Positions 35,935 through 59,905 of a stretch of 64,000 nt of DNA are shown piece by piece. The position numbers and the translations under genes are program-made. The stretch's first letter is position 1. Each line of letters begins with the position of its first letter. The DNA comes from a virus (taxonomy: Duplodnaviria; Heunggongvirae; Uroviricota; Caudoviricetes): IMG/VR virus record IMGVR_UViG_3300042564_004805, positions 1 through 64,000 of that record; one strand, 5' to 3'. The notes beneath the pieces are model-generated. The model saw nothing but the letters and a program-made list of their open reading frames with translations, did no database searches and was not told the origin of the DNA.

Positions 35935-36843
35935 ATGATCCCACGCGGTGGCACTGAACTCATGATGGCCAATCTCTCTCAACAACTGGGAGGTTGGCCA
36001 ACATCGTTGAATCTCATAGTAAGCAATTGCAGCTTACATCAAATAGATCCCAACAAAAAGAACGTTGTTTGGCAGCATCTCGACACCGACCAAGAGGCCA
36101 GTCAAGGTGCGGCTAATCCACAGTTTCAACAGGCTGTTGCTTGCTGGATATTTGTAAGTGAATGGCAACGTATAAAATGGATAAACTATTTTGGCATAGA
36201 TCCAAACAAAACAGTTGTGATCCGCAATGCCATACACTCTTTCAATTGGCAACTCAAACCCGCCTCTCAGCAAATTGAAATGATCTACACCAGCACTCCT
36301 TGGAGAGGACTTGATGTGTTGCTGGATGCTGTAGACCAACTGCAATATCAAAACTGGCGTCTCACAGTTTACAGCAGCACCATTATCTATGGCAAAGGTT
36401 TCAGTGACAGCACCATGAGAGGCTATCAGTCTTTGTTTGATCGCTGTCGCCAGCACACTCAAATCCAGTATGTTGGTTACGGGCTCAATCAAGCTGTGAG
36501 AAAGAGATTGCAAGGCAGTCACTTATGGGTATATCCCAGCACTTTCCCAGAAACCAGCTGCATCTCAGCAATAGAGGCTGCTAGTGCTGGGTGCCAGGTG
36601 GTCACCACTCGACTTGGTGCTCTTGAAGAAACCCTTGGCGAAAGTGCTTGTTTTGTAGACTATACTACCAACAAACGGGTATTGTCAGCAGCCTTTGCTA
36701 AATCTCTTGATAACCAATTGAGCAAATATGATTCAAATAACCCTCAATGGCAAAATCAAGCATTATTATTTGACAAACTCTACAGTTGGAACACTAGAAT
36801 ACACGAATGGCAAATTTTAATCAATCAACTCGTCGCAGAGTAA
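35935..36843 (+). CDS. glycosyltransferase (GT-B, group 1/GT4-like C-domain)
   Basis: RGLDVLLDAV...EAASAGCQVVTTRLGALEE resembles the Glycos_transf_1 C-terminus; starts 11 nt after the fibre stop. Confidence 0.55.
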   Translation: MIPRGGTELMMANLSQQLGGWPTSLNLIVSNCSLHQIDPNKKNVVWQHLDTDQEASQGAANPQFQQAVACWIFVSEWQRIKWINYFGIDPNKTVVIRNAIHSFNWQLKPASQQIEMIYTSTPWRGLDVLLDAVDQLQYQNWRLTVYSSTIIYGKGFSDSTMRGYQSLFDRCRQHTQIQYVGYGLNQAVRKRLQGSHLWVYPSTFPETSCISAIEAASAGCQVVTTRLGALEETLGESACFVDYTTNKRVLSAAFAKSLDNQLSKYDSNNPQWQNQALLFDKLYSWNTRIHEWQILINQLVAE

Positions 36844-37505
36844 TGATAGGCACCCCTAGCTATGATGGCAAGGTAGAGGTCAGCTACACTAGCAGTTTAT
36901 TTTATACTACTAAAGCTGCTGAAAAAAGAAACATTGAACTTTTACCCTTATGGGTCAGCTTCGATGCATTGATTCAAAGAGCTAGAAATGACACCTTGCA
37001 ATTAGCATATGAGATCGGTGTTGATGATCTCGTATGGATTGATCAAGATATTGAATGGACCCCGCAACAGTTTTTTAAACTACTGGATCATCCTGTAGAT
37101 GTTGTGGGTGGCACATATCCCAAAAAAGGGGATCGTCCAGAATATGTTGTAAGACAAATGACTAAACGCCCTATTGACCCGCAAACTGGTTTGATGGAAG
37201 TTGATGGCTTGGGCACAGGATTTGCACGCATGAGTCGACAAGCTATAAACCATTTGTGGAACACCAGTCAAGCCTATATTGATCCCAAAGACATGAAGCA
37301 ACGCCGAATGATCTGTGATGTGATAGTTACCAACACCGGTCTTATGAGTGAGGACATACGTATGTTTGAAAAACTTCAGGAAGGCGGATTTCCCATATAT
37401 CTTGACACCACAATCACTTGCAAGCACGGCGGCTATAAGCAATATCAGGGTGACTTCCTACAATGGTACACAGGGCTGGGACAGACAAAAGGCCGGCAAT
37501 TGTGA
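36807..37505 (+). CDS. putative glycosyltransferase (GT-A-like)
   Basis: weak GT2-like features (RRVMIGTPSYDG...VWIDQDIEW); embedded in the glycosyltransferase cluster. Confidence 0.4.
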   Translation: MANFNQSTRRRVMIGTPSYDGKVEVSYTSSLFYTTKAAEKRNIELLPLWVSFDALIQRARNDTLQLAYEIGVDDLVWIDQDIEWTPQQFFKLLDHPVDVVGGTYPKKGDRPEYVVRQMTKRPIDPQTGLMEVDGLGTGFARMSRQAINHLWNTSQAYIDPKDMKQRRMICDVIVTNTGLMSEDIRMFEKLQEGGFPIYLDTTITCKHGGYKQYQGDFLQWYTGLGQTKGRQL

Positions 37506-37573
37506 CTACCTACAAGTGTTGGTCAAGTTCTCAACAGCTTTTTAGTCTATTATAGGCAGATGAATCTTAAATT

Positions 37574-37603
37574 TTGGCAAAAATAGTCAATTTGCCTTAT
37601 AAT
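37574..37603 (+). promoter_or_regulatory. sigma70-like promoter (TTGGCA-18-TATAAT) internal to the plus-strand cluster
   Basis: ttggca at 37574-37579 and tataat at 37598-37603; AGGAA Shine-Dalgarno site before the ATG at 37628. Confidence 0.5.
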
Positions 37604-37627
37604 ATCTTGAAGCTTCGAGGAACTAGA

Positions 37628-38560
37628 ATGACAAAAAAGATATTTTGGATAGACGGTGGTGCTGGTAGAGTAATCACCGCTATTCCTGCATTAATCAAAT
37701 ACGGTCGATTGCATCCCAACAGCGAATGGGCTGTGTTGGTTGGGGCATGGGATTTCTTATACTGGGGTATTCCCGAGCTGCAAGATCGCACCTACAATCT
37801 TGATACAAAAGGTGTTTTTGACAACGTAGTCAAGAATGCTGATCAAATAGTAACCCCGGAGCCTTATCGTATCCCAGCATATTTTAGGCAAGAGATAAGT
37901 TTGGCTGAAGCTTTTGACAGGGAAATCAACCAAACTACAGATCACAGTGATTTATTGCCACCACGCTTGGCATTCAATCAACAAGAAACTCTAGTAGCCA
38001 AGAATACCATAGCTGATCTCAAAAGTGTGAGCAAAAAGAACAAAACTATTGTATTTCAACCCTTTGGCCGTGGTGCCAAACTGGATCGTGCCACAGTGAT
38101 TGACGAAGAAAGCAGAAGCTTAAGCTCAAACGACTATTTGAGCCTGAGCCGGCGTCTTAATCAAAAATACAACATGATCTTTTTTGGCGAGCCTGACTTT
38201 CAATTGAAAGACGACAACTGGAGTGCCAAATACACTGCTGATTTAAGAGTTTGGTCAGCTCTAGTTGCCAACTCTGACTATTTTGTAGGATGTGACAGTG
38301 TAGGCCAGCATATTGCTAGAGCCTCTGGAGTACCAGGCACAGTAATTATTGGGAGTACGTTTCCCAAGAACACCAGCTATCCAGATTACTTTCAAATAAT
38401 TGAAAAGCCTGCTGCTAGGAAATATAGTCCTATTCGTATTGCTGGTCTGGACGTAAATCTCAGCAATAGGCTGAATGAAGGCACAATGAAATTCTCAACC
38501 AAAGAACTAGACGACATCTATCAAAAGATTGTTGCAGATATTGAAAGGAAAACACGCTGA
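37628..38560 (+). CDS. glycosyltransferase family 9-like (heptosyltransferase-like)
   Basis: KKIFWIDGGAGRVITAIPALIKY N-terminus typical of GT9; start set at MTKKIF. Confidence 0.5.
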   Translation: MTKKIFWIDGGAGRVITAIPALIKYGRLHPNSEWAVLVGAWDFLYWGIPELQDRTYNLDTKGVFDNVVKNADQIVTPEPYRIPAYFRQEISLAEAFDREINQTTDHSDLLPPRLAFNQQETLVAKNTIADLKSVSKKNKTIVFQPFGRGAKLDRATVIDEESRSLSSNDYLSLSRRLNQKYNMIFFGEPDFQLKDDNWSAKYTADLRVWSALVANSDYFVGCDSVGQHIARASGVPGTVIIGSTFPKNTSYPDYFQIIEKPAARKYSPIRIAGLDVNLSNRLNEGTMKFSTKELDDIYQKIVADIERKTR

Positions 38561-40257
38561 TGAAAATAATGGCCATCAATCCCGGTCACAACAGCAGTGT
38601 GGCGCTTGTTGAAGACGGTAAGTTGCTGTTTTATAGCGAGGAAGAACGATGGAGTCGCCTAAAGTATGACGGTAATCCATTTAGAGCCATGCTATGGGTA
38701 CTAACTAATCATTTGGTAGACCACTTGATCATTGGTGGGACCACCACTAATTGGGTTACTCTTCCTTGGACTAACGAGAATGCCTATGCTGCATTAGCTC
38801 GCAAATTCAGTCCTAATGTGCAAGTTACCCTAATGGGCCATCTACATCACTTGGGTCATGCAGCTAATGCCTTCTATGGCAGTGGTTTTGAAACAGCATG
38901 CGCCTTGGTCGTAGATGGGGCCGGAAGCTATGTGCAAGAAAGCATGGGAGAAGGACTACCACTTACTGGGGGTTTTGAAACTGAAAGCATCTATCATTGC
39001 AGCTATCCACATGAGTTCAACGCAGTTTACAAAAGATACAGTGACGGTGCGGAAACCAGCCTCTACTACGACAACGGTATCCAAGAATTTGATAATAATG
39101 TTACTATTGTTAAGGCATACGAGAGTGTAAGTGATTATTTAGGATTTGGGGCTATTGAAGCTGGGAAGACCATGGGACTAGCTCCTTATGGCCAAGAAGA
39201 CAGCAACATTCCTGCCTTTTTCATCAACAATAAAGGCAACAAGAACTTGTTGATTCCTCGATATCCCACCGGCGCACACATTGACGAGAATAGATTTCCT
39301 TACTTGCGTAGATACACACAACCAAGTGACTGGCATAATAACTTTGAATTAGTGCGAGATCAAGACAAGAATCTAGCCTACCATGTGCAGAAAGAAACTG
39401 AAGAGCAGATGGTGAAGTTGATTGAGCGTGCTATTGACATTACTGGAGAAAATCGCATTGTAATCAGTGGTGGTTATGCACTCAACTGTGTTGCCAACTA
39501 CAAATATCTAGAACGTTTCCCTAATATTGAGTTTTACATTGATCCCATTGCACATGATGGTGGAACAGCCATTGGTTTAGCTCGGCATGCTTATTATGTT
39601 CTGAGCCAAGATACTACACCTCAACCACTCTCTCATCTCTACTTGAGTGTGTTGCCAGACTATAATCAGATTGAAACCACTATTGCTTCTGTTGAAGGTA
39701 TCAGCATGAGAGACACATCACCTGCTGAAGTGGCACTACTGCTGGCAGAAGGCAATATTGTGGCTTTGTTTCAAGGCGCTAGTGAAGGTGGGCCTCGTGC
39801 ACTAGGCAACAGAAGCATTCTTTTTGATCCTCGAGTAACCAACGGCAAGGATATTGTTAACCAAGTTAAAAATCGTGAATGGTTCCGCCCTTTTGCTGCG
39901 AGTGTGATGGCAGAACATGCAAATGACTGGTTTGACATGCGCAATCTCAATGAAAGCCCTTACATGATGTATGCTGTAAATGTGAAGGAAAGCCAAAGAG
40001 AGTTGATTCCTGCAGTTACACATGTGGATGGCACCTGCAGAGTACAAACTGTCACCAGCGAGCAAAACTTGCATTTGTATCAGCTGCTAGATGCTTTTCG
40101 GCAACAAACCGAAACACCGTTGCTGTTTAACACTAGTTTCAATCTAGCTGGGCAGCCATTGGTGGAAACACTGGTAGACGCCTTGATAACAATCTTCAAC
40201 TGTGATATCCACTACCTGTATCTTCCCGATCTGGGAATGTTAGTATGCAAACAGTAA
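38560..40257 (+). CDS. carbamoyltransferase (NodU/CmcH family)
   Basis: N-terminus MKIMAINPGHNSSVALVEDGKLLFYSEEERWSRLKYD matches Carbam_trans_N; length 565 aa fits. Confidence 0.8.
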   Translation: MKIMAINPGHNSSVALVEDGKLLFYSEEERWSRLKYDGNPFRAMLWVLTNHLVDHLIIGGTTTNWVTLPWTNENAYAALARKFSPNVQVTLMGHLHHLGHAANAFYGSGFETACALVVDGAGSYVQESMGEGLPLTGGFETESIYHCSYPHEFNAVYKRYSDGAETSLYYDNGIQEFDNNVTIVKAYESVSDYLGFGAIEAGKTMGLAPYGQEDSNIPAFFINNKGNKNLLIPRYPTGAHIDENRFPYLRRYTQPSDWHNNFELVRDQDKNLAYHVQKETEEQMVKLIERAIDITGENRIVISGGYALNCVANYKYLERFPNIEFYIDPIAHDGGTAIGLARHAYYVLSQDTTPQPLSHLYLSVLPDYNQIETTIASVEGISMRDTSPAEVALLLAEGNIVALFQGASEGGPRALGNRSILFDPRVTNGKDIVNQVKNREWFRPFAASVMAEHANDWFDMRNLNESPYMMYAVNVKESQRELIPAVTHVDGTCRVQTVTSEQNLHLYQLLDAFRQQTETPLLFNTSFNLAGQPLVETLVDALITIFNCDIHYLYLPDLGMLVCKQ

Positions 40258-40687: not shown

Positions 40688-41563
40688 ATGGCAGGCACCT
40701 TATATGGGATGATAACTGTTGCAAGCAGCAACCAATATACACATGTAGCCCTTACAAGTTTTTTCAAACACACAAAATTATCTGCAGAAGATAGGTTTGT
40801 GTTGATTGACAACGACGGAGAATGGACTAAAAACTGGCATTTGGACTGTTTTGATCCCAACCTAGTATATGTGAATTCAAACCCTCAGAATTTTAGCACA
40901 AATATCAATCAATTGCTGAGATGGGCTGATGAACAATATGCAGATTTAGTTTTCCTCAGCAATGATGTTGTTTTTACCCCCAAGTGGGCTACCCGTCTAG
41001 TGATAAATGACAGGACAGTGAGCATTCCCAGTTGTAATCAAACTCATTTTTATGGCTTTGACCCTACCTTAAATCTACAGCAATTTGGTGGTAGATTTCT
41101 ACATTTGAATGTAGCTGCTCACACACATGCTGCACGGTCACCAGCACCTTTTGAGCGCCTTCTCATGCCCACCTATGTATGTAGAATTCCACGTCTAATT
41201 TACCAAGAAGTTGGAGGCTTTGATGAAGCGTTCAACATGGGAGGTGAAGATGTGGACTATAGATTGCGCCTACTTCAAAAAGGCTTTGAAATCAAATATT
41301 GCAGCAGTTATTTGCTACACTTCAACGGTTGCAGTAGTTGGAACGGGGCGGAAACCTTAGCTGAAACTCAACTGCGTAACCGGTTGTATATGCAAACTTT
41401 TATTGAGAAATGGGGAGAAGATTTACACGACTTGTGTATGAGTTCAGGACAACCAACATCTATTATTGAAAAATATCAATTACACGGGTTACTTAACGAA
41501 TGCCGTTTCAACGACATAATAAAATCCTTGCTAACTGCACTAGAGTTCAATAAAGTTATATAA
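40688..41563 (+). CDS. glycosyltransferase family 2-like
   Basis: MITVASSNQY...FVLIDNDGEW...FLSNDVVFTP suggests a GT-A fold. Confidence 0.45.
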   Translation: MAGTLYGMITVASSNQYTHVALTSFFKHTKLSAEDRFVLIDNDGEWTKNWHLDCFDPNLVYVNSNPQNFSTNINQLLRWADEQYADLVFLSNDVVFTPKWATRLVINDRTVSIPSCNQTHFYGFDPTLNLQQFGGRFLHLNVAAHTHAARSPAPFERLLMPTYVCRIPRLIYQEVGGFDEAFNMGGEDVDYRLRLLQKGFEIKYCSSYLLHFNGCSSWNGAETLAETQLRNRLYMQTFIEKWGEDLHDLCMSSGQPTSIIEKYQLHGLLNECRFNDIIKSLLTALEFNKVI

Positions 41564-41566
41564 ATA
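41559..41566 (+). promoter_or_regulatory. T4-late-type promoter TATAAATA
   Basis: TATAAATA overlaps the upstream stop; 10 nt later AAGGAG, then the ATG at 41591. Confidence 0.5.
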
Positions 41567-41590: not shown

Positions 41591-41899
41591 ATGAGTGAGA
41601 CAGTGGGATCAATTATTGATCCACAAACAATAACTACTGAAATTGTTTTAAGTGAAAGAGTAGTAACAAATGAGTTTGTTATTGCTGAAATTTATGAAAG
41701 CATTGTGAACCGTTCTGTGCGGGCTGAGATTGAGCTTGGGCCATTTGTTACTGACACAAGACCAGATGGCAGCACGCAAACAAGAGGAAGCAGTCGTCGA
41801 GGGATTACAGTGTGGGACAATGATGCGTATGATGCTATAAGGGACACTTGGCGCAACGAAGATCTCATTACACGTATCAAGACCATTTTGAACGGATAA
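41591..41899 (+). CDS. hypothetical protein (late-type expression signals)
   Basis: 102-aa ORF with TATAAATA plus AAGGAG upstream and a strong terminator downstream. Confidence 0.55.
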   Translation: MSETVGSIIDPQTITTEIVLSERVVTNEFVIAEIYESIVNRSVRAEIELGPFVTDTRPDGSTQTRGSSRRGITVWDNDAYDAIRDTWRNEDLITRIKTILNG

Positions 41900-41950: not shown

Positions 41951-42159
41951 ACCTATGGTGCTATAGACGTGCACGCGGGGAAGACTGATTCACAAACAAC
42001 CTTACACGTAGAAAGTTGATTTGGCTTGAGGTATCATAAATCCTTTTGAGGATCGCAACCTTGCTAGTGCATATGAAAGGAACGCAGTAGCTAAAAAGAA
42101 CAAAGGTGCAGTGCTCCACAACGCTGCACCCTTGTTCTTGGTAACTCTAGTAGCTGAGT

Positions 42160-43374
42160 TTAGTTTGCGTTCATGCTCGGAATAAGTGACGAATATTGTT
42201 TCACAAAAACTTTCCATGAACTCAGTTGATTTGGCTTGATGGGGTGGTCACGTGTAGTTGCCATAAACGACCGAGCACCCATTACAACCATCTCCGGTTC
42301 AAAGTTGTCCATCATGAACTGGAAGAAGCGATCGGCGCTCTTATACATGTCATCGTGCGAATTCTTCACACCATTCTGCTTATTACTCTCAGCTTTCTTG
42401 ACATCATCTGTGAGCTCATACACCAGTGCAGTGGTCAGTGCATAGCAAATGTCCATCTGCTTCACGTTCAGCTTGGTGACTGTGCCATCAAGGATGTCGC
42501 GTGCACGGGGTAGGTTAGCTGCTTGTCGACGATAGCTGAGGAACTTCAGGGCAGGACCCTCACCTACAGTGCCCTTGATGAGATCGCCAAGCACATCTGC
42601 TGGCAGATCCGTCTCGCGGTAGCTGCCATCCAGTTGGGGCTCATACAGCAGTTCGCTGACAAAGCTCCAGCTACGTGGGGTAGCAAACGCATAGCTTTCG
42701 CGACGGGGATCAAAGTCAAAGAGATCATTGGGCTGATAGCTGAGGTAACCCACCACATGCTCGTGGATGCGATTCATCATAGCCCATTCCTGCCAGTCAT
42801 CAAAGTCCACAGCCAGCGTTGCATGGATGAAGCGATTTGCCAGCGGAGTTGGCATGTTGTAGGCCACACCCTTGTCACGCACTCGGTTACCAGCAGCAAC
42901 CATCACTGCATCATCAGGCAGCTGGTAACTGCCAATGCGCCGGTTCAGGATCAGCTGATATGTGGCAGCCTGCACAGAGGGTGGTGCTGCGCTCATCTCA
43001 TCAAAAAACACCATTGCGCGGCTGTTGGGATCAGTGGGCAGATCGGTAGGGTTGCTCCACTTGAAAATCTTCTCTGTCAGTGGAACGTTGTGCTCATTCT
43101 TTACCACGTTGCCTTCTGCATCGCGGATAGTCACTTCTGCGAGGTGCGGAATGCCTCGAATGTCAGTGGCCTCAAGTAGGGGAAGTCGAATGTCAATCAG
43201 TGGGCGCTTCTGAGCACGAGCAACCTCTGCAACAATGTCACTCTTGCCAATGCCAGGAGGGCCGGCGATGAAGAGAGGTCGCTTCCTACGCGTCACGTGA
43301 TCGATCATCACCTTCAGCTTGCTGGGACTGACAGTAGTGATTGTCTGGATTTTCTCTTGAGCTGCCTTAGCCAT
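42160..43374 (-). CDS. MoxR-like AAA+ ATPase
   Basis: Walker A FIAGPPGIGKSDI; AAA_5-type core. Confidence 0.8.
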   Translation of the reverse strand: MAKAAQEKIQTITTVSPSKLKVMIDHVTRRKRPLFIAGPPGIGKSDIVAEVARAQKRPLIDIRLPLLEATDIRGIPHLAEVTIRDAEGNVVKNEHNVPLTEKIFKWSNPTDLPTDPNSRAMVFFDEMSAAPPSVQAATYQLILNRRIGSYQLPDDAVMVAAGNRVRDKGVAYNMPTPLANRFIHATLAVDFDDWQEWAMMNRIHEHVVGYLSYQPNDLFDFDPRRESYAFATPRSWSFVSELLYEPQLDGSYRETDLPADVLGDLIKGTVGEGPALKFLSYRRQAANLPRARDILDGTVTKLNVKQMDICYALTTALVYELTDDVKKAESNKQNGVKNSHDDMYKSADRFFQFMMDNFEPEMVVMGARSFMATTRDHPIKPNQLSSWKVFVKQYSSLIPSMNAN

Positions 43375-46507: not shown

Positions 46508-46515
46508 AGCCTTAT

Positions 46516-50867: not shown

Positions 50868-51575
50868 TTACAACAGTATTTTGTTTTGCCAACTGTTGCA
50901 CAAATTTATTTTTTCTGATTCACTTACACCAGGAAAATGCACAGCCCAATCGCCTGGCTGCCATGAGCCATCTGTCAACAGTTTGTCCAAGGCAGGTTTT
51001 GGTATATAAGGATATAGGTTGTAATCATAGCTGTTTAACATTCGTTGAGGCACAACTTGAATCGTTTTGTCCCAAGGATGTGGAATTTTCAAAGACTCGC
51101 CTTGCGGGTAACTTGGGTGGTGTGTGCCGGGGAACCCAAATAACTGATTCAATGCCCACTGTTCTGAGTCCCAATGTTGCAAAGCTTCTTTTTCCACTTT
51201 CAATAACTCGTGCAGTAATGACCGACACTGACTTGAGTTACGAAATAAAATGCTGCCTGTATTGAGGCCATTTACATCAGTTGAGATGAGTAAATCATGT
51301 GTGTCACTAGTTTTTTCTTGTATGGTTGTTTTGAAGTTGGTGATCAAAACATCAGTATCAGTATACCAAAGCCAACTGAGATGTGGGTGTGTGTCAAAAA
51401 GTTCCAACACCGCATGGATTCTGTCAAAGTGACTGGTCCAAGTGGTTTTTTCAAACAGATGATAATTGTGTCTCTGAGCATACAGCTTTTTGTTTTTGTC
51501 CAAGGTTATTTTTGAAAGTTCTGAGAAATTGTTGTTGTAAACAACCAGCAGTCCATACATGTGTTGCCCGATCAA
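50868..51575 (-). CDS. glycosyltransferase (GT34/GMA12-like)
   Basis: YAQRHNYHL...SWLWYTDTDVLITN. Confidence 0.5.
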   Translation of the reverse strand: MIGQHMYGLLVVYNNNFSELSKITLDKNKKLYAQRHNYHLFEKTTWTSHFDRIHAVLELFDTHPHLSWLWYTDTDVLITNFKTTIQEKTSDTHDLLISTDVNGLNTGSILFRNSSQCRSLLHELLKVEKEALQHWDSEQWALNQLFGFPGTHHPSYPQGESLKIPHPWDKTIQVVPQRMLNSYDYNLYPYIPKPALDKLLTDGSWQPGDWAVHFPGVSESEKINLCNSWQNKILL

Positions 51576-52369
51576 AAATAATTTCCATTTATGCGGTCAA
51601 ACCAACAATCGCCCCCGCCTCCTAGAGGAGTTTGTGTTTTTGTATCCCGATTGCCTTCGCACCAATAGCTTTTGCCCAAACCTATCGCTATAGCCAATGG
51701 CGCACTTTGATTGCCAATGAACATTTCACAACCTTGAATTACCTGTGCCAAATGCAACAGATCTAGGGTAGGAAAATAGTCAATAGTCTCCTTGAACTCT
51801 GTTTGCCACTCTTGATGTTCTCTAGGTGTGCCCACAAACACAGCCTGCTTGCACAGACCTTGTTTGATAAAATCCATCCATTTTTGTGTAGCACTGTTGT
51901 CTCTATGTCTAGGTGTTCGATTGATTACTATGGGTCGATTGGGGATAAGGATTGGGCTAACCTGTGTGAGCCAAGGCTCTCTCAACAACTGGTGCTGCAA
52001 TTGAACGTCAGTCATATCCCATCCCAGTCCCAAGGCATAGGCTTGAGTTTGATTACCTTGCCAACCAGAAGGTAATATGAATTTCCAATTTTCAGCTGCT
52101 AAATCATAATCAATGTGCTGGTTGGTATAGATTTGCACTTCATGCAAATAACTTTGGTGTAACAACAGGCTTTCAATGTTTTGAAAATCTTTTTCACTTA
52201 TTCTGCCTGTGAAGGGCTGATTGTACCAACCCAACACATTTCGGCAAAACTCATCAAGGTATCCCAATTTGAGGTAAATGTTGCCACCCCCAAGGATTTT
52301 TACTGCACAAAGACTGTATATTATATCACCAGCAGTGGCATAGGTTATGAAGTTTTTCAGCACAATCAA
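51572..52369 (-). CDS. glycosyltransferase family 9-like
   Basis: N-terminal ATAGDIIYSLCAVKIL GT9-like signature. Confidence 0.45.
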   Translation of the reverse strand: MIVLKNFITYATAGDIIYSLCAVKILGGGNIYLKLGYLDEFCRNVLGWYNQPFTGRISEKDFQNIESLLLHQSYLHEVQIYTNQHIDYDLAAENWKFILPSGWQGNQTQAYALGLGWDMTDVQLQHQLLREPWLTQVSPILIPNRPIVINRTPRHRDNSATQKWMDFIKQGLCKQAVFVGTPREHQEWQTEFKETIDYFPTLDLLHLAQVIQGCEMFIGNQSAPLAIAIGLGKSYWCEGNRDTKTQTPLGGGGDCWFDRINGNYF

Positions 52370-52414: not shown

Positions 52415-52996
52415 TCACTTTTTCCTAAGAATGATTTCGATAGCTGATTCACCAATGGGTGTCAGTGTTTGATCTTGATTTTGAATATGGTATCGATAAC
52501 TGGCATCCAAAAGCTCAAGCTTCAAGATAGTGAGTTCGGGAAAGTTGGCTAGGAAACTTGTGCAGCTTACAGAAACAGGACTCCAGCTGAGATTTTTTTG
52601 AATTGTCCAAGTAGTTTTGTGATCCCAGTTGAAACGACTGGGAAAAACCCCTTGTTCATAAAGGTCTTCATCTGGAACCAATAGGACCATATGCCCACCT
52701 GGTTGCAAAATTCTGCTCCAGTTTCTCATAGCTTCTGTAGGGTCTCTCATGTGCTCAAGACAATGGCTGCTGAGTAACCAATCAAAACTGTTGTCAGCTA
52801 CACCTGCCATCAACTGCGCATCACCATCAGGTAGGTCCCAATTTCTCACCTGCTGCATTCCTGGAAAAAAATCTTTGTAATTGCTGACTGGGTCATCCCC
52901 AGCACCAATGTCAATGCCATTGCCTACGAAATATCGAGTAATAAATCTGCTGTCAGAGAGCCTTCTCATAACAGCTTTACTGGTTTCATGTGTCAT
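52415..52996 (-). CDS. SAM-dependent methyltransferase (Methyltransf_11/23-like)
   Basis: GIDIGAGDD motif I; LQPGGHMVLLVPD. Confidence 0.7.
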   Translation of the reverse strand: MTHETSKAVMRRLSDSRFITRYFVGNGIDIGAGDDPVSNYKDFFPGMQQVRNWDLPDGDAQLMAGVADNSFDWLLSSHCLEHMRDPTEAMRNWSRILQPGGHMVLLVPDEDLYEQGVFPSRFNWDHKTTWTIQKNLSWSPVSVSCTSFLANFPELTILKLELLDASYRYHIQNQDQTLTPIGESAIEIILRKK

Positions 52997-53725: not shown

Positions 53726-53764
53726 ATTTTGACCTAAAAATTCTCTGTTACAATAACTGTTGTA

Positions 53765-54481
53765 TTAGAGAGAGGTCAAGTCAACCATCTTCATAAATTC
53801 AGCACGAGCACTGGGATCCTGTTTGAACGCACCACCCAGCTTGCTGGTAACTGTGCTGCTGCAATCATCTTCAACGCCACGATGACTTACGCAATAGTGC
53901 TTGCCGTGAATGACGACAGCAATGCTATCGGTTTCCAGGATATATTCCATTGCATGAAAGATCTGCTCAGTCAAACGCTCTTGAATTTGTGGTCGGCGGC
54001 TAAAGTATTCGACAATTCGATTGATCTTGCTTAGGCCCAATACCTTTTCTTTGGGAATATAAGCCACAGTTGCTACACCATCAATCACAATGAAGTGATG
54101 TTCGCAGGCACTTTTGACAGTGACATTTCGTTCACACACCATTTCATCATAGCCCATTTTGTTGGCAACAGTGGTGCACTTGGGGAAAGCTTCCCAATCA
54201 AGACCCCAAAAAAGTTCCTGGATAAACATGCGAGCCACTCGTGTCGGCGTTTCAGCCAAACTATCATCTGATAGATTCAAGCCCATTGTTTCCATGATGT
54301 CCTTGAACTTGCGTTCAATAATATCAATTTTGTCTGTGCGGCTTAGGGAATTTTCCACTGTTGGGGTTTCAACCCCTTTGGAAACTAGGTATTCATGTAC
54401 TTTGCGACCCAGTTCAGGATCACATTTTGTGCGATTATAGCTCATATCTTTCCTTTCAAAGCATCTGTCGTTTATGCACAA
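53765..54481 (-). CDS. folE: GTP cyclohydrolase I (FolE)
   Basis: CEHHFIVIDGVATVAYIP..VLGLSKINRIVEYFSRRPQIQERLT..HCVSHRGV..STVTSKLGGAF are canonical FolE motifs. Confidence 0.9.
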   Translation of the reverse strand: MCINDRCFERKDMSYNRTKCDPELGRKVHEYLVSKGVETPTVENSLSRTDKIDIIERKFKDIMETMGLNLSDDSLAETPTRVARMFIQELFWGLDWEAFPKCTTVANKMGYDEMVCERNVTVKSACEHHFIVIDGVATVAYIPKEKVLGLSKINRIVEYFSRRPQIQERLTEQIFHAMEYILETDSIAVVIHGKHYCVSHRGVEDDCSSTVTSKLGGAFKQDPSARAEFMKMVDLTSL

Positions 54482-54548
54482 CGGGTGTTTCCACCAATTT
54501 GCTACCGTAATGTAGCAGACTATTTATAACACAAAAATTGTGTTATTG

Positions 54549-56207
54549 CTATTCAAATTCATCAAAATCCATGACAATGTTGTTATCAGCGTTCATTCCT
54601 GTGATTTTGGCTAACATAGCAGAATGTTTTTCAATCAGTTGCATGGGTTTTTCACTAGTGAAGATCTCTTCACAAAGTCCCCCAGCAAATTCAATCAAGT
54701 CTTCGCTGATGTGATGTTTCCTCTCCTCCATTGGCAGGTCTTGCATTGCACATGCATGTTGAATAGCTTCAATATGAAGCTCAACATTGTGGCTCATGCC
54801 CAGCACATAGCTGAGACCATCCATGCTGCTGGGCCATTTGACCTGATACTTTTCATGGTCCTTAAACTCTTTCTTGCCCCAATCAAACATGCCGCTGCCG
54901 TGGTCAGTGTGCTCATGCATAAGATAATGTTTGTATTCATCACTGTAGCGAAACTTCTCGCCATGAACGCCTTCCAAGCTTTGTTGATACAACAAGCTTT
55001 CAAACTCTTTTTGTGAAAAAGCTTGTTTTTTGAAATTGAGATCTTCATAACCTTTGACACAGATATCACCAATGGTGATCCGCTTGCCAATGCTGCTTTC
55101 GCGAACAGCATGTTTTTGATTGTGGCGATTGATCCAGTCTTGAAACAGTTCTTGACTGCCCTTAAGCTCTTTTTTGTCTGGCAACGAGTTGTTTTTATAT
55201 GCAATGCTTTGCGGACTTACTTCCCAACTGTAGTAGATGTTGCCTTTTGCTACGTTCACAAAAGGACTTGCTGCATCGTAACTGAGAGTTGTACGCTCGT
55301 TGATGTGCTTTCTCCACACTCGTTGAAGTGTAGTAAGAGCGCAGCCTGCCTTGATTTTGCCATTGCCTAGATAATGGATCCAATCTCTGTTATCCAAATA
55401 CTTGCCATCTCGCATGATAATGATCCGACGGAGATTTATAGCAAAGTTGCTGGCTTGCACATTACTGAATGCCCAGGTTTCAAAAGGAAGATCTTTCACA
55501 ACGTCCCACCAAATGTCACCTTCTTCTTGATTGCGCCCCTGCAACACATTCAAAAATTGTGTACTACCTTCCCGACGATTTTTGATGAAAAAGTTGTGAT
55601 TCTCCATACTGCTTTCAAGACAGTCTCTAAAGTTCTTAACCCCAGGATGTAGGTTCTCACCTGTGATGGGATCGTTACCAAACTTCAACAAGCTGCCTGT
55701 GGGGACATCTAATACCATACTGTAGTCACAAGTGTGTTCAAGCCAGCGTAGGATTTTCATCCTAATGGCGTCTTTGTCCTTCATCCAGTCTTGATCAGTT
55801 TGCTTTTCTTTTTTCTGCCAAGGCCATTTGAGAACGCCAGTAGCAATCTGATAACCACCACTGTCGCCCACAATTACTGAGGCGTTTTTGTCTCGCTTTT
55901 GCACCATAGCTTCTTGGATATCACTTTGAGCAGGATCCCAATAACTGTGACCGCTGCTGTAGAGTGCAGTGGGATAATAAAATAAGTTGGTATTGGTTTG
56001 CAGAAAGTCCAAATCCTGCAATCCACCCGGCAGCCCCTTGACTGTGCGAGCGTTGGGCTGACTTACTAGTCGCACATAGATCGCTGAGATTGAAGGAAGA
56101 AAAATAGCATAGTCCTTGTTGGTGGTCCACATGTCTCTACCCACCACAGGTTGCATGTTTTGATCAATTTTTTTCAAATGTGGGTTGGGGCTGGAAAGTT
56201 TTGTCAT
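54549..56207 (-). CDS. tRNA-guanine transglycosylase-like protein (candidate DpdA-type DNA 7-deazaguanine transglycosylase)
   Basis: VIVGDSGGYQIATG resembles the TGT catalytic ILTDSGGFQVFSL; sits next to FolE; 552 aa is longer than known TGT/DpdA. Confidence 0.5.
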   Translation of the reverse strand: MTKLSSPNPHLKKIDQNMQPVVGRDMWTTNKDYAIFLPSISAIYVRLVSQPNARTVKGLPGGLQDLDFLQTNTNLFYYPTALYSSGHSYWDPAQSDIQEAMVQKRDKNASVIVGDSGGYQIATGVLKWPWQKKEKQTDQDWMKDKDAIRMKILRWLEHTCDYSMVLDVPTGSLLKFGNDPITGENLHPGVKNFRDCLESSMENHNFFIKNRREGSTQFLNVLQGRNQEEGDIWWDVVKDLPFETWAFSNVQASNFAINLRRIIIMRDGKYLDNRDWIHYLGNGKIKAGCALTTLQRVWRKHINERTTLSYDAASPFVNVAKGNIYYSWEVSPQSIAYKNNSLPDKKELKGSQELFQDWINRHNQKHAVRESSIGKRITIGDICVKGYEDLNFKKQAFSQKEFESLLYQQSLEGVHGEKFRYSDEYKHYLMHEHTDHGSGMFDWGKKEFKDHEKYQVKWPSSMDGLSYVLGMSHNVELHIEAIQHACAMQDLPMEERKHHISEDLIEFAGGLCEEIFTSEKPMQLIEKHSAMLAKITGMNADNNIVMDFDEFE

Positions 56208-56216
56208 AGATATATC

Positions 56217-57305
56217 TTACTTTACTGTGGTTGATCTAGCAACTGTGTTGCTGATGTTTTCAAACATTACGCTAGCTGAAAGATATTTTTGTAAGAGCAC
56301 TTTCTTTTGCTTTTCCAACTGCCTACTGAACTTTTTGGGGTGATTCAATCTGTACTGAATAAATTCAGTCAATTGTTGTTTGTGTGTTTGATAACTTTCC
56401 CAATCTTGAGTCCAGTTGCTGGGATAGAGAAAATCAGGATGATACATTTCGCTGTAGCTGCACCGATTGGGCAGCACTGGGATCACATCTGCCAGCACAG
56501 CTTCCATTACACTGATGCCCAAGTTTTCATGCAAGCTACAGGAAAAAATTACTTGGCAGTCAGCCAGCTTTTCGTAATAACTGCTTTTGTTGAGATTCAT
56601 TTTTTGTGTAATACACCAAGGCTGTTTCATGCTGTTGGAGAGATCTTCAGCAATTTCAGGCTGCTTATCTGGATTGTAACGGTGTGGCCAAATAACGCCC
56701 TGTTTCCTCTCTCGGCTGTCCTGCATAATATCTTGCATTTGTTTGACAATAGCAGAGTGTGGTTGCCCACTAGTTTTGGCTTTGTGATGATATTCATTGC
56801 TGATGCCCAGATTGCTCAAAAACATTTTTTTATGAAAATCTGTTGCATACCAATTCTCATCGCAGGCATGAAACAGTGCCTGCTCAGCTAGCCAGGGCCA
56901 CGGTTTGCTCATTTTATATCCAAGGATATCAGTGGGATCGTATGCTCCAGCATGCCAGTAACCTTGTATGTTCCAATTATATCCCATGAGATCATTCATA
57001 TACTTGACTTGCAGAATCACTGGATTCCAAGCGTCAGTGAACAAATGCACATCATTTGGAGTTGTTTCTCCAGCATCATGTTTGTTGAGAAACTCAACCA
57101 GTTGAGTGCTTTTCCATCTGTTGGTGTCGCTGAAATTCAAAAATGCACCAGATGTGGTGCTTGTAGTGTTTTGGACCCCATCAAGTTGGATTACTTTTGC
57201 TGCATTTCCAACTATTTCTTGGAGCCGCAACGGAATCTCGTGATACCATTGTTGGGTGTAGCGATTATCCAATGGCTCGATAGGCCATACAAATACATTG
57301 GGCAT
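56217..57305 (-). CDS. glycosyltransferase (GT4-like)
   Basis: C-terminus HENLGISVMEAVLADVIPVL is Glycos_transf_1-like. Confidence 0.55.
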   Translation of the reverse strand: MPNVFVWPIEPLDNRYTQQWYHEIPLRLQEIVGNAAKVIQLDGVQNTTSTTSGAFLNFSDTNRWKSTQLVEFLNKHDAGETTPNDVHLFTDAWNPVILQVKYMNDLMGYNWNIQGYWHAGAYDPTDILGYKMSKPWPWLAEQALFHACDENWYATDFHKKMFLSNLGISNEYHHKAKTSGQPHSAIVKQMQDIMQDSRERKQGVIWPHRYNPDKQPEIAEDLSNSMKQPWCITQKMNLNKSSYYEKLADCQVIFSCSLHENLGISVMEAVLADVIPVLPNRCSYSEMYHPDFLYPSNWTQDWESYQTHKQQLTEFIQYRLNHPKKFSRQLEKQKKVLLQKYLSASVMFENISNTVARSTTVK

Positions 57306-57358
57306 TTTTGATCCTTCAAATATTCTCTAATAGAGATAGTATATAAACCACAGGAGTT

Positions 57359-57388
57359 TTTGACAATTATAGCATTGAAAATTATAAG
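57359..57388 (+). promoter_or_regulatory. orphan plus-strand sigma70-like promoter (TTGACA-18-TATAAG) abutting a long hairpin
   Basis: ttgaca at 57359-57364 and tataag at 57383-57388; no plus-strand ORF downstream. Confidence 0.35.
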
Positions 57389-57398
57389 GTTATCGCCA

Positions 57399-57460
57399 AT
57401 ACAAAGTATTTGAGCCAGCACAATCCTATCTCGATCTCCTGGCGCTCAAATACTTTGTAT
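57399..57460. terminator. long hairpin (17-bp perfect stem ATACAAAGTATTTGAGC, 28-nt loop) downstream of the QueD-like gene
   Basis: perfect inverted repeat at 57399-57415 and 57444-57460. Confidence 0.4.
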
Positions 57461-57475
57461 AGCAATCCTTGGTGG

Positions 57476-57847
57476 TTATGCAGCGTCCCAGGCTAGCACA
57501 GCCCCATTCTCACCATCTTCACTAACGTCAATGCTCACTGCACGACCTGGATAGCGAGCAGAGATTTGGGCGTAGAGGTCTTCGGCGATCATCTCGCAGC
57601 TTTTGAAATCCAGTTGGATCACACCATCACCATAGAGACTTTCCAGCCAACGCTTGAAAATGATAAATTCAATGTCTCGGTCTAGGTGATTGACGCCAAT
57701 TCCAACCTTGAAATGAAACATGTGCCTATGCGGATATTGAAGAAAATTTACATCTGCAAGGGAGGGGTCAGTTCCAGCTGCTGGATACTTGTGAATCCCT
57801 TCACGTTGAAAAGTCACGTAGATTTTTCTTGTAGTTGGTTCTGTCAT
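57476..57847 (-). CDS. possible QueD/PTPS-like T-fold protein (weak)
   Basis: VTFQREGIHKYP and PHRHMFHFKV loosely parallel QueD FTFEAAHRLP and HGHSFMVRL; the catalytic Cys is not evident. Confidence 0.3.
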   Translation of the reverse strand: MTEPTTRKIYVTFQREGIHKYPAAGTDPSLADVNFLQYPHRHMFHFKVGIGVNHLDRDIEFIIFKRWLESLYGDGVIQLDFKSCEMIAEDLYAQISARYPGRAVSIDVSEDGENGAVLAWDAA

Positions 57848-57903
57848 TATTTCTCTCTTTGTTATGTGTTCAGATTATATGCTGTAGTCAGCTAAATCAA
57901 CCG

Positions 57904-58131
57904 CTACACCAATTGATTTACTGTGCAATATTTGAGGCCACATTGTGCACTACAAAACTCAATACGGGTGGTCCCCATGTCACGGAAATATTCTGGCCAA
58001 ATGTCACTTTGAGTATGGACTACTGCCCCATCATTGTCACAAACGTATTTCCTGTAAGGCTCACAGCTTGTGCCGCATGCAACACATTTGAGAGTGGGAA
58101 AATTTGATGGAATGGTTTTTTTATGTTTCAT
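57904..58131 (-). CDS. small zinc-ribbon-like Cys-rich protein
   Basis: CVACGTSC...C...CSAQCGLKYC. Confidence 0.35.
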   Translation of the reverse strand: MKHKKTIPSNFPTLKCVACGTSCEPYRKYVCDNDGAVVHTQSDIWPEYFRDMGTTRIEFCSAQCGLKYCTVNQLV

Positions 58132-59120
58132 TTGGGTACCAGCGTATCAACAAAGATATCAGTTGTTTTTTCCCAACTCCATCGCTTGCTGCCTTCAAAA
58201 ACAGTTTTTCGACTCAATGTCAAACATTGCGAGATAGCTGTCTGAATATCCTCATTTAGCACACCAGTCACCCCATCATCTACAACATCTATTGGACCCT
58301 GCACAGGAAATGCTGCAACAGGAGTACCAACACTCATGCTTTCAATCATAACCAACCCAAACGTGTCACTTTTGCTGGTGAAAACAAAGCAGTCAGCATT
58401 TTGGAACTGCTGTACCAGTTGCTTACCGCTCAATTGCCCAGTAAATGTCACCCAGGGGTATTTGTTCTGTAACCGCTTGAGATCAGGGCCATCACCAACA
58501 CACACTAGATTGTATTTTTCTGCTGATAGGCTACAAAACACCTCTAAATTTTTCTCAGCACTGATTCGACCAACACTCAACAATGTGGGCTTGGTGTCAC
58601 ACTTGCGGTCATTAAATTGAAACAGTTGGGTGTTGACTCCCCGTGACCATGTGATGGCTTGAGACAGGCCAAGCGACACCATCTCTCTTTGCATAGTAGG
58701 AGTGTTGACCAAAGTTGCTGCACTATTTTGATGAAACCATTTGAGATACCTCATGGTTTTGAGGGCCGGCACACCAAATTTTTCCTTGAGATAGTGATCC
58801 CATCTTGTGTGAAAGCTAGTTGTGTAGCGCCAATTTTTGTTTTGAAAAAATTGCCTAGCAGTTAAGCCCAGCACACCTTCTGTACAAATGTGCAAGTGTG
58901 TGGGTTCATACGCCTCTATTCTTTTTTTCAAATTCCAAAAATTCAATGGTATGCGAGCACCTGGATATACCAATGCAGGCATAGACATCATTTGATCAGG
59001 AGTGATGTGAATGAGATTCTGTATGCCTCGAGAAAACATTTGTTTTTTCACTGCATTCATTGTAGTTACAACACCATTCACTTGGTCTTGGCAGTTGTCA
59101 TCAACAATCACAAGTCTCAT
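58128..59120 (-). CDS. glycosyltransferase (GT4)
   Basis: C-terminus DTFGLVMIESMSVGTPVAAFPVQGPIDVVDDGVTGVL is a Glycos_transf_1 signature. Confidence 0.65.
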   Translation of the reverse strand: MRLVIVDDNCQDQVNGVVTTMNAVKKQMFSRGIQNLIHITPDQMMSMPALVYPGARIPLNFWNLKKRIEAYEPTHLHICTEGVLGLTARQFFQNKNWRYTTSFHTRWDHYLKEKFGVPALKTMRYLKWFHQNSAATLVNTPTMQREMVSLGLSQAITWSRGVNTQLFQFNDRKCDTKPTLLSVGRISAEKNLEVFCSLSAEKYNLVCVGDGPDLKRLQNKYPWVTFTGQLSGKQLVQQFQNADCFVFTSKSDTFGLVMIESMSVGTPVAAFPVQGPIDVVDDGVTGVLNEDIQTAISQCLTLSRKTVFEGSKRWSWEKTTDIFVDTLVPK

Positions 59121-59905
59121 TCAAGGCTCCATGTGTTTTTCGTCATCATACTTTTTGTTTCAGTGTCGTAAACCAGTAGCTCTATTGAGCCATCAAAGTT
59201 TTCAACCAAAGCTGACACAGTTTCACAAAAATCACCACAATTCATATACACAAACCCATCCTCAAACGTTTTCAACGATGGAGAATGAATATGGCCACAA
59301 ATTACTCCATGAAATGCTTCGTCCCGAGCATATTGTACTACATGTTGCTCGTATTTGGTGATAAATGCAACAGCTTGTTTCGTGTTTGTTTTAAGGTATG
59401 AACTTAGACTCCAATAATCTTTTCCAAAAAACCGGCGCATATGATTCAAATGTGTGTTCAACCACAGTAAAAAACTGTGTGCTTTGTCGCCCATCAAGCT
59501 AAGCCATTTGTGATATCGAATTACACCGTCAAACAAATCACCGTGTGTTACCAAAAATCTCTGCCCATGAACAGAGTGATGTTCAAAGGCATTGCCCAGC
59601 TCAATGTTGCCAAAAGTGTGTATGTCTGGAATCCATGCTCGAAGGTACTCATCATGATTACCTAAAACATATCTCACCTGTGTGCCTCTCTTGGCCGCAG
59701 TGAGAATTCTTCGAACCACATTGCTATGTGTTTGTGGCCAGAATTTGCTGCTTTTCAATTTCCACAAATCAAATATGTCACCAACGAGGTATAGATTTTG
59801 GCAGGAGTTGTGTTTCAAAAACTCCACAAGTAGCTCAGCTTGGCATGCACGACTACCAAGATGCGTATCGCTTATGAAGATGCTACGATATTTGCTGTTT
59901 GGCAT
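59117..59905 (-). CDS. calcineurin-like metallophosphoesterase (LpxH-like)
   Basis: ISDTHLG, LYLVGDIFD, GNHDE motifs. Confidence 0.7.
   Translation of the reverse strand: MPNSKYRSIFISDTHLGSRACQAELLVEFLKHNSCQNLYLVGDIFDLWKLKSSKFWPQTHSNVVRRILTAAKRGTQVRYVLGNHDEYLRAWIPDIHTFGNIELGNAFEHHSVHGQRFLVTHGDLFDGVIRYHKWLSLMGDKAHSFLLWLNTHLNHMRRFFGKDYWSLSSYLKTNTKQAVAFITKYEQHVVQYARDEAFHGVICGHIHSPSLKTFEDGFVYMNCGDFCETVSALVENFDGSIELLVYDTETKSMMTKNTWSLE

Follow-up and report, generated by a model that had tools for sequence, protein, structure and literature searches.

We found that, in a 64,000-nucleotide stretch of an uncultured virus of the class Caudoviricetes (IMG/VR record IMGVR_UViG_3300042564_004805, positions 1 to 64,000; hereafter, the window), a giant fibre gene is followed by five genes for glycan-active enzymes, with which it appears to form a single inserted module (unit A; 28.6-42.1 kb, plus strand). 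These enzymes may decorate the fibre, in the cytoplasm, with a carbamoylated glycan that contains heptose, a reading to which we assign a probability of about 40%. In total, around ten genes for soluble Leloir-type glycosyltransferases (GTs) sit in at least four independent units and do not make up one pathway. A sequence-only reading of this DNA had envisaged one dedicated pathway of at least 11 GTs between positions 35935 and 59905. These positions do begin the first GT gene and finish a metallophosphoesterase gene, respectively, but the units differ in evolutionary behaviour, and one of the 'GT4' genes lies in a DNA-modification/replication module.

The window is part of an uncultured T4-related jumbo myovirus, as judged by its DNA polymerase fragment (62540-63991), which shares 42-45% identity with the polymerases of Agrobacterium phage Atu_ph07, Sinorhizobium phage Phosso and Rak2-like jumbo phages, and by identical proteins encoded on numerous metagenome contigs, the longest of which (ERZ27272062 k141_697863) reaches 326 kb. 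Megablast of the 36-60 kb region against GenBank phages gave zero matches; thus, the phage is new at the DNA level. Throughout, Pfam scores were judged against gathering cut-offs and NCBIfam scores against equivalog cut-offs.

Fibre gene and enzymes in one putative insertion

The backbone genes flanking unit A, which encode a DUF2201 (VWA-like) protein on the left (27251..28513, minus strand; Pfam) and an AAA_5 (MoxR-like) protein on the right (42160..43374, minus strand; Pfam 1e-5), sit side by side in 13/13 relatives. In the window, 13.6 kb separate them, occupied by the fibre gene, the five enzyme genes and a 102-aa open reading frame (ORF), all on the opposite strand. Since the flanking genes adjoin each other in every one of these relatives, the fibre and the enzymes most plausibly arrived together as one module. 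The insertion site is a replication/early, non-structural position of the backbone, and no direct or inverted repeat of at least 11 nt was found flanking the 13.6-kb insertion. A terminator-like hairpin (42105..42130, plus strand; 9-bp stem, 6 GC pairs) closes the unit; it is the strongest plus-strand hairpin, those inside the plus-strand ORFs being weak (3 GC pairs). The window also holds an HNH endonuclease gene and a weak NUMOD3 homing-endonuclease-like gene, the latter beside the insertion boundary.

The fibre gene (28787..35923, plus strand) encodes a protein of 2378 aa with a C-terminal Peptidase_S74 chaperone domain (3e-11). Repeat and composition analysis revealed that the protein is built of YadA-head-like 14-15-aa NTAIG/NTTG repeats, and a direct-repeat search detected seven tandem units of 609-618 nt (203-206 aa) each within 31375-35600; Tandem Repeats Finder returned nothing for this gene, the period being above 500 nt. 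The cysteine content is unusually high (5.6%). In metagenome variants with an identical carbamoyltransferase, the fibre ORF was called at 420, 739, 1968 or 2378 aa, which suggests repeat copy-number variation or assembly collapse. The fibre had earlier been described as sequon-saturated. N-x-S/T is indeed enriched (86 observed vs. 55 +/- 6 in shuffles), but the motif belongs to the structural repeat NTAIG..NTTG, and the extended sequon D/E-x-N-x-S/T is present in a single copy in 2378 aa. The window proteins examined gave no Pfam hit to the oligosaccharyltransferase STT3/PglB or to HMW1C-type GT41 N-glycosyltransferases, and no membrane protein was found among them. Sequon density was therefore rejected as a sign of N-glycosylation.

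The first enzyme gene, for a GT4/GT-B glycosyltransferase (35935..36843, plus strand; Glycos_transf_1 6e-10, Glyco_trans_1_4 2e-10, above cut-off), begins 11 nt past the fibre stop codon. The same arrangement recurs in 12 relatives, where the GT4 gene begins 15-36 nt past the point at which the S74 alignment stops; the GT4 proteins there are as little as ~40% identical. The proposed tie between the plus-strand enzymes and the fibre gene is thus borne out, and GT genes contiguous with a structural gene are what characterizes the mycobacteriophage-type virion-glycosylation systems. In a related jumbo phage, the order is fibre(S74)-GT4-241aa-sulfotransferase-296aa-GT9-carbamoyltransferase-sulfotransferase-APS-kinase-like, and there the cluster adjoins the T4 gp15, gp13 and sheath genes.

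The GT9-like/carbamoyltransferase pair

Next to the GT4 gene, unit A encodes a probable GT-A-fold glycosyltransferase with a DxD motif (36807..37505, plus strand), which matches phrog_34859 'glycosyltransferase' (7e-8). The window protein itself has no Pfam hit, and weak Anp1/Glycos_transf_2 hits were recorded in 5/8 of its homologs. The core of the unit is formed by the two genes that follow. The first encodes a GT9-like (heptosyltransferase-family) glycosyltransferase (37628..38560, plus strand; phrog_8954 1.4e-83). Its match to Glyco_transf_9 (PF01075; E 0.16) stays at 11.7 bits against a cut-off of 22, while most of the listed homologs, 70-83% identical to it, have a precomputed PF01075 hit marked as weak. 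The second encodes an O-carbamoyltransferase (38560..40257, plus strand; Carbam_trans_C 6.5e-60, Carbam_trans_N 4.7e-24), and the earlier NodU/CmcH assignment holds for both domains: the N domain scores 85.9 bits against a cut-off of 24 and the C domain 202 against 27. The protein is a NodU/CmcH family member and not a NodU ortholog, given that its best NCBIfam hit, NodU (6.5e-40), reaches 137 bits against a cut-off of 1000.

The GT9-like stop codon overlaps the carbamoyltransferase start codon, i.e., the pair is translationally coupled, and the two genes are adjacent in 72/80 viral loci collected for this cassette, with identity down to 37%. In the genome of the cultured cyanophage S-CAM1, the pair sits between tail-fibre genes, followed by the heptose genes HldE and GmhA. 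The GT9-like protein is 36.5% identical to SXBG_00222 of this phage, and the carbamoyltransferase 46-51% identical to cyanophage 'Nol-like' enzymes. An ORF of at least 1000 aa lies within 10 kb of the cassette in 24/33 loci, compared with 5/35 control loci. Sulfotransferase genes adjoin the pair in 31/80 loci, and two of them plus an APS-kinase-like gene were found in loci L011/L012; this implies that the products of related phages are sulfated besides being carbamoylated. As the relatives swap in sulfotransferases, decoration is suggested to be the variable part of the system. We found no prior description of the pair, of the fibre-to-GT4 arrangement or of the insertion as a single unit in the literature searched.

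Downstream of the pair lies a gene for a probable GT2-like GT-A glycosyltransferase with DND and GGEDVDYRLR motifs (40688..41563, plus strand). It matches four GT-A/GT2 Pfam families (1.5e-3 to 1e-2), all below cut-off. Its homologs are likewise sub-threshold for GT-A families, and the weak hits obtained in PDB profile searches are all GT-A enzymes; tblastn against phages gave no match. The last gene of the unit is the 102-aa ORF (41591..41899, plus strand), homologs of which occur near the cassette in 15 loci.

Enzymes of the NodU/CmcH/TobZ family typically decorate small molecules, and NodU is the best NCBIfam hit here. The carbamoyltransferase, the methyltransferases described below and the GTs could, thus, make a decorated sugar-derived metabolite in the style of aminoglycosides or Nod factors. 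Iyer et al. proposed a metabolite derived from sugars and amino acids for a cyanophage cluster with carbamoyl transferases (PMC7824862), and the sulfotransferases and the APS-kinase-like gene of the relatives recall Nod-factor decoration. However, scaffold enzymes (NodC-type chitin synthase, non-ribosomal peptide or polyketide synthases, aminocyclitol synthesis) and an exporter are lacking in the window, and the tight link with the fibre gene would be left unexplained. We therefore hold a small-molecule product to be very improbable.

Expression signals of the cassette

A sigma70-like promoter (TTGGCA-18-TATAAT, 11/12; 37574..37603, plus strand) lies directly upstream of the GT9-like gene. Upstream of the cassette in 56 unique loci, sigma70-like sites (at least 11/12) were detected in 18 and the T4-late-type motif TATAAATA in 17, while random windows contain each at a rate of ~1%. 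A late-type motif (TATAAATA or CTAAATA) is accompanied by a sigma70-like site of at least 10/12 in 7 of 56 loci, and ten loci carry a T4-late-type motif alone. Because both kinds of motif precede the cassette far above the random level, it seems to be an autonomous, self-promoted expression unit whose timing is of the early type in some lineages and of the late type in others.

Part of the block had earlier been taken as late on account of a promoter at 41559. The motif TATAAATA is present (41559-41566), but, sharing bases with the stop codon of the last unit A GT gene at the 3' end of the block, it could serve only the downstream 102-aa ORF; the pair is preceded by the sigma70-like promoter instead. 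We rejected the T4 late promoter as a timing marker in the window, where TATAAATA occurs three times against 0.87 expected and 6/100 shuffles reach three. Another of these three exact motifs (54521-54528, minus strand) lies ~40 nt upstream of the start codon of the FolE gene described below.

The fibre or the host surface as acceptor

From the enzyme families, the gene architecture, its conservation and the joint movement of fibre and enzymes we infer a candidate acceptor, sugars and order of steps. The enzymes of unit A would act in the cytoplasm, drawing on host nucleotide sugars, and would construct a short O-linked oligosaccharide on the fibre after its synthesis, prior to virion assembly. 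The glycan would hold a heptose-type sugar, which the carbamoyltransferase would O-carbamoylate. O-glycosylation of the fibre is favoured because the fibre and the enzymes are arranged, and appear to have moved, as one unit. A carbamoylated heptose as the product of the pair is suggested by analogy with WaaC/WaaF and WapO of Pseudomonas, where WapO carbamoylates heptose of the lipopolysaccharide (LPS) core (PMC8005017). There, too, a GT9 enzyme is paired with a NodU-family carbamoyltransferase, and the implied product is O-carbamoylated heptose. The phage proteins are, however, distant from the Pseudomonas ones (GT9 sub-threshold in Pfam; NodU 137 bits vs. 1000), and neither heptose kinases nor a Kdo transferase are encoded here.

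As for the site of action, no transmembrane segments are predicted for the proteins of the 26-64 kb region, in which no 19-residue hydrophobic window reaches 1.6, fibre repeats excepted. Neither a flippase, polymerase or initiating phosphoglycosyltransferase, as in Wzx/Wzy-type systems, nor GtrA/B/C was found among the Pfam hits. The lack of transmembrane segments argues against a self-contained lipid-carrier pathway and against N-glycosylation, and for cytoplasmic action on an existing acceptor.

A bacterial parallel is provided by the autotransporter heptosyltransferases TibC/AAH, which are dodecameric and carry an iron-binding cysteine cluster. The likeness consists in the GT9-type GT-B fold (PDB 4rap/4rb4), TibC being among the Foldseek hits of the second GT9-fold protein of the window (51572, see below), and in the location of the gene near that of a giant adhesin-like protein made of repeats, the counterpart of which serves as acceptor in the bacterial system; here, 1.7 kb separate the fibre gene from the GT9-like gene downstream of it, both within one inserted unit. 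In contrast, WaaC is a better match than TibC, the invariant cysteines for the iron site are absent, and the putative acceptor is not an autotransporter but the fibre of a phage, bearing an S74 chaperone domain.

A rival reading is remodelling of the host envelope, whereby lipid A-core or other lipid-linked glycans of the host would be modified at the cytoplasmic face of the inner membrane by the soluble GTs together with the carbamoyltransferase, GalE and the LpxH-like enzyme. The altered surface would block superinfection or adsorption of progeny to infected cells and debris, and the position beside the fibre gene would be incidental, reflecting a hypervariable hotspot. The enzyme content (GT9, GT4, GT25, GT2, GalE, an LpxH top hit) is that of LPS core synthesis, GT9 together with the carbamoyltransferase mirrors the carbamoylation of the second heptose, HepII, in the Pseudomonas core (PMC8005017), and galE seems to have been captured recently from the likely host lineage. 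The early-type sigma70-like promoter of the pair, here and in 18/56 unique loci, fits such a role, and host remodelling is the published reading for the clusters of cyano-/pelagimyophages and jumbo phages (PMC7029224, PMC7824862, PMC12801897). Yet, it accounts poorly for the joint move of fibre and enzymes into a non-structural backbone position and for the tight coupling of GT4 to the fibre stop codon in 12 relatives. The late-type motif found alone in 10/56 unique loci implies a timing ill-suited to surface change, and no Gtr-type or Wzx/Wzy-type membrane component is present. In addition, S-CAM1 brings its own heptose-activation genes, which would be needed if its host is without ADP-heptose. 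To our knowledge, the LPS of marine Synechococcus is heptose-free. On balance, we regard host-envelope remodelling as somewhat unlikely.

Several points weigh against glycosylation of the fibre. GT9, GT4, GT25, GT2, GalE and an LpxH-like enzyme constitute the classic LPS-core toolkit, and because the LPS core, too, is assembled by cytoplasmic enzymes that are soluble or peripheral, finding no membrane proteins favours neither acceptor. We know of no report of tail-fibre glycosylation for any phage of a Gram-negative host. The promoter of the pair resembles that of an early moron-type gene, and both GT9-like families are devoid of invariant cysteines, unlike the iron-binding cluster of TibC. 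Distant cassette loci carry other kinds of giant ORFs, so that an acceptor sequence common to all is not apparent; one particular type of fibre repeat was rejected as the conserved acceptor, the N-rich YadA-like repeats accompanying the cassette only in close relatives. T4-like tail-fibre regions are hypervariable and gather accessory genes (PMC7029224); therefore, the co-location of fibre and enzymes could be incidental.

Accessory glycan islands on the minus strand

The second block named by the sequence-only reading (49.4-59.9 kb) is not a contiguous glycan block, for it holds the genes for FolE and a DpdA-like transglycosylase and abuts the QueE gene. Two glycan islands, units B and C, belong to this region. 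Unit B (49.4-53.0 kb) comprises, on the minus strand, genes for a possible class I methyltransferase (49376..49960), a GT17-family (49977..50849; Pfam 2.3e-27) and a GT34-family glycosyltransferase (50868..51560; Pfam 5.6e-21), a second GT9-fold glycosyltransferase (51572..52369) and a SAM-dependent methyltransferase (52415..52996; Methyltransf_11 1.4e-10). Two methyltransferases had been proposed; the latter is well supported, while the 49376 protein is sub-threshold (Methyltransf_24 3e-3) and matches phrog_24975 (1.7e-39), a family of unknown function. The 51572 protein likewise misses the PF01075 cut-off (E 0.094; 12.5 bits vs. 22). Its AlphaFold2 model (pLDDT 92.4) has WaaC (7.7e-7), Veillonella GT9, WaaF and TibC among its top 10 Foldseek PDB hits (7.7e-7 to 1.8e-4), which points to a GT-B fold nearest to the WaaC/WaaF-type enzymes.

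The two GT9-like families of the window are not close paralogs, since hhalign found only a 33-column match between them (32% probability); neither alignment contains invariant or near-invariant cysteines. Sequence searches against PDB were uninformative: phmmer gave chance-level hits only for the ORFs at 37574, 51572, 54549 and 40688, and profile searches nothing useful for the GT9-like, 123-aa, GT4-like or GT-A families.

Unit C (58.1-60.5 kb, minus strand) consists of genes for a GT4 glycosyltransferase (58128..59120; Pfam 4.9e-23, with a Glyco_transf_4 N-terminal domain), a calcineurin-like metallophosphoesterase (59117..59905; Pfam 4.7e-10) and a weak CYTH-like protein (59905..60459). LpxH is the top NCBIfam hit of the phosphoesterase, but its scores of 47.3 and 37.3 bits fall short of the cut-offs (134 and 190, respectively), so that the earlier label 'LpxH-like' denotes resemblance only. 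Similarly, the CYTH hit was recovered (3.4e-4), but below cut-off.

We used the GT4-like gene at 56217, described in the next section, as bait and took 80 viral loci from at least 583 viral contigs. Among these, the GT17, GT34, second GT9-fold, methyltransferase, GT4 (58128) and phosphoesterase genes are found only in the two closest relatives; thus, units B and C appear to be specific to this lineage and to have been inserted into its replication module. In other large phages (loci L255 and L256, one of them cyanophage-like), the GT9-fold/GT34 pair turns up again, and there it adjoins genes for a DegT aminotransferase, RmlC-like, epimerase/dehydratase, methyltransferase, thiamine pyrophosphate (TPP)-enzyme, aldolase and HldE-like proteins, the HldE-like genes lying near the second GT9-fold gene in L256. 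These neighbours suggest synthesis of an unusual amino or branched sugar. Since the pair recurs elsewhere beside sugar genes, unit B probably behaves as a mobile glycan island.

A GT4-like core gene in a probable 7-deazaguanine module

The genes for FolE, QueE and the DpdA-like protein form a probable 7-deazaguanine DNA-modification module, all on the minus strand, which interrupts the supposed glycan block and had been missed by the sequence-only reading; with the GT4-like and 123-aa genes described below, it spans 48432-57847. The QueE-like radical SAM enzyme (7-carboxy-7-deazaguanine synthase; 48432..49313) matches five QueE NCBIfam models (2e-21 to 6.5e-14) and is 62% identical to the Phosso 'queE-like' protein. 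FolE (53765..54481; Pfam 2.1e-60) is a GTP cyclohydrolase I; of the deazaguanine precursor genes, FolE and QueE were found in the window, and no QueC was seen. The third protein (54549..56207; 552 aa) has no Pfam hit and was assigned to the DpdA/TGT family of DNA-guanine transglycosylases by motif and structure. A D-S-G-G-F-Q motif is invariant or nearly so across 37 sequences, and the top 11 Foldseek hits of its AlphaFold2 model (pLDDT 87.8) are all TGT, QTRT1/2, ArcTGT or the DNA preQ0 insertase DpdA (7ui4); a TGT fold with a DSGGFQ-type substrate motif is thus predicted. As tblastn matches were restricted to PA5oct-like phages, Phosso and one Vibrio phage, the protein may represent a new DpdA subfamily.

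The adjacent GT4-like gene (unit D; 56217..57305, minus strand) is sub-threshold for Glycos_transf_1 (5.8e-3). However, 9/13 members of its family match this model (best 4e-5), the EX7E motif of GT-B enzymes is invariant, and the family is present on at least 583 viral contigs. Directly upstream lies a gene for a 123-aa protein (57476..57847, minus strand) with invariant His, His, His and Ser-Cys-Glu residues in the alignment. It gave no PDB sequence match and no Pfam match; an identity as QueD is not claimed, the motifs having been seen by eye only, with no tool support. Where a locus extends for at least 5 kb to both sides of the bait gene (41 loci), the 123-aa gene is directly upstream in 41/41, and the genes for the DpdA-like protein (37), FolE (37), a clamp-like protein (38) and the polymerase (33) lie nearby on the same strand. 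Given this conserved same-strand synteny, 56217 seems to be a core gene of the replication/deazaguanine module and not a part of fibre-glycan machinery. An association of GT4-like and 123-aa genes with a divergent DpdA had no prior description in the literature searched.

Such a context raises the question whether the GTs of the replication module, 56217 above all and possibly units B and C, glycosylate modified bases of the phage genome. LPS-related GTs of phages transfer hexose, N-acetylhexosamine (HexNAc), heptose and Kdo to 5-hydroxymethylcytosine (5hmC) and often adjoin polymerase or clamp genes (bioRxiv 10.1101/2023.12.21.572611), which makes DNA a serious option for 56217. This gene and its partner are core genes beside those for the DpdA-like protein, FolE and QueE, the same neighbourhood is found in Phosso and in PA5oct, where the two genes are gp167 and gp166, both phages sharing the deazaguanine/replication backbone, and PA5oct has a deazaguanine system (PMC7824862) and DNA bearing an unidentified modified G (PMC12191111). 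The GTs beside polymerase and clamp genes thus resemble the known DNA glycan hypermodification clusters, while the DpdA-family enzyme, FolE and QueE are shared with DpdA systems (PMC6884629, PMC10516641). On the other hand, the window Pfam hits include none of the precursor enzymes for 5hmC or 5-hydroxymethyluracil (5hmU; C5-methyltransferase, TET/5mYOX, ThyS-like), no T4 alpha- or beta-glucosyltransferase and no hydroxymethylase, so that T4-type DNA glucosylation has no counterpart there. Neither a GT in a DpdA system nor glycosylated 7-deazaguanine in DNA was found in the deazaguanine literature searched. The synteny may merely mean shared ancestry of the replication module, and the DpdA-like gene of Phosso lies ~170 kb away. 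Unit B homologs occupy sugar-biosynthesis islands away from replication genes in other phages, and the plus-strand unit is linked to the fibre and not to replication. DNA hypermodification by these GTs is, in our view, improbable.

The narrower proposal, in which a 7-deazaguanine-derived base would be glycosylated by 56217 together with its 123-aa partner, is a long shot. If true, the result would be a glycosylated purine in DNA, for which the literature searched holds no description, and a sugar-bearing deazaguanine could identify the 'modified G' of PA5oct.

Glycosyltransferase census and other genes of the window

The GT set is real, but the count is ten and not at least 11, as precomputed Pfam hits, through which the rest of the window was checked, show no further GT. 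Five proteins are above Pfam cut-offs, namely 35935 (GT4), 49977 (GT17), 50868 (GT34), 58128 (GT4) and a GT25-family protein; two are supported by structure (51572, GT9 fold) or close homologs (37628, GT9-like); and three are weak yet consistent (36807, 40688 and 56217). The family guesses made from the bare sequence proved good, both GT9-like calls included. The GT25-like gene, reported at 17220, was confirmed (17274..17948, plus strand; Pfam 5.3e-7); it is isolated, among early-type genes.

The galE gene at 7973 had been called captured, rightly as it seems. It encodes a true UDP-glucose 4-epimerase equivalog (7973..8962, minus strand; 387 bits vs. a cut-off of 262) and lies in a local GC peak of 62.5%, while the phage elsewhere has ~40-55% GC. 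It shows 84% amino acid and 82% nucleotide identity to a contig of an Acetobacterales metagenome-assembled genome (MAG), with the match confined to galE. Phage contamination was rejected as the source of this contig, since its GC content is 65-75% and only galE matches. This indicates recent capture from a high-GC alphaproteobacterium and hints at an alphaproteobacterial host, probably a freshwater one, as opposed to a cyanobacterium or SAR11.

Other genes of the window include one for a 230-aa protein (44595-45287, minus strand) with a precomputed Pfam hit to Gad2 (PF26128), an anti-Gabija counter-defence family, two RNA ligase genes, one T4 Rnl1-like and one of the RNA_ligase family, and, between the genes for the polymerase and the clamp-like protein, a 210-aa ORF weakly matching Gp23 (major capsid). 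The RNA ligase and Gp23-like ORFs, together with the HNH and NUMOD3-like ones mentioned above, occupy 1841-3058, 9784-10995, 4431-5213, 26196-27227 and 61460-62092.

Relation to known systems and implications

The scale of the GT set is at the high end but precedented, contrary to the view that it is unusual. Cyanophage S-SCSM2R carries 13 GTs and 22 cell-wall genes (PMC12801897), and tail-fibre regions rich in GTs have been described for pelagi- and cyanomyophages (PMC7029224) as well as for jumbo phages, where at least eight GT families occur in tail-fibre-type clusters described as 'capsular polysaccharide modification systems' (PMC7824862). These regions share with ours the combination of multi-family GTs, sugar epimerases and carbamoyltransferases beside tail-fibre genes of large aquatic myoviruses, and S-CAM1 literally shares the GT9-like/carbamoyltransferase pair. 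In contrast to them, the fibre and the enzymes appear here as a unit inserted into the replication/early backbone, the probable host is a freshwater alphaproteobacterium instead of a cyanobacterium or SAR11, and fibre glycosylation is preferred over the host-surface remodelling published for those phages.

A parallel for the preferred reading is virion glycosylation in mycobacteriophages, for which PMC12619734 cites Freeman et al. (2023). In those phages, soluble GTs encoded beside structural genes are proposed to glycosylate virion proteins in the cytoplasm. The targets, reportedly shown by mass spectrometry, are the C-termini of capsid and tail-tube subunits, with one to few GTs involved. 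Here, unlike in mycobacteriophages, the proposed target is the fibre, and other enzyme families are engaged. In chloroviruses (capsid) and mimivirus (fibrils), virus-encoded, host-independent cytoplasmic GTs decorate the virion surface, and their glycans have been solved experimentally. Several GT families, including otherwise eukaryote-typical ones, are a common trait, but those are giant viruses of eukaryotes, and the likeness is at the family level only (GT17/GT34 types).

For annotation, these findings call for caution, as a GT family name alone misleads about the target: one 'GT4' of the window sits in a DNA-modification/replication module. LPS-like sugar enzymes encoded beside tail-fibre genes are a recurrent feature of large aquatic and jumbo myoviruses, with the virion, the host surface or DNA as the possible target. 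Both the GT9-like/carbamoyltransferase pair and the fibre-to-GT4 arrangement are conserved between this jumbo phage and two cultured Synechococcus phages, S-CAM1 and S-CAM3; the cultured Prochlorococcus phage P-SSM2 carries the cassette as well. If the fibres of such phages are indeed glycosylated, this would have a bearing on host range, on recognition by antibodies or grazers and on phage engineering.

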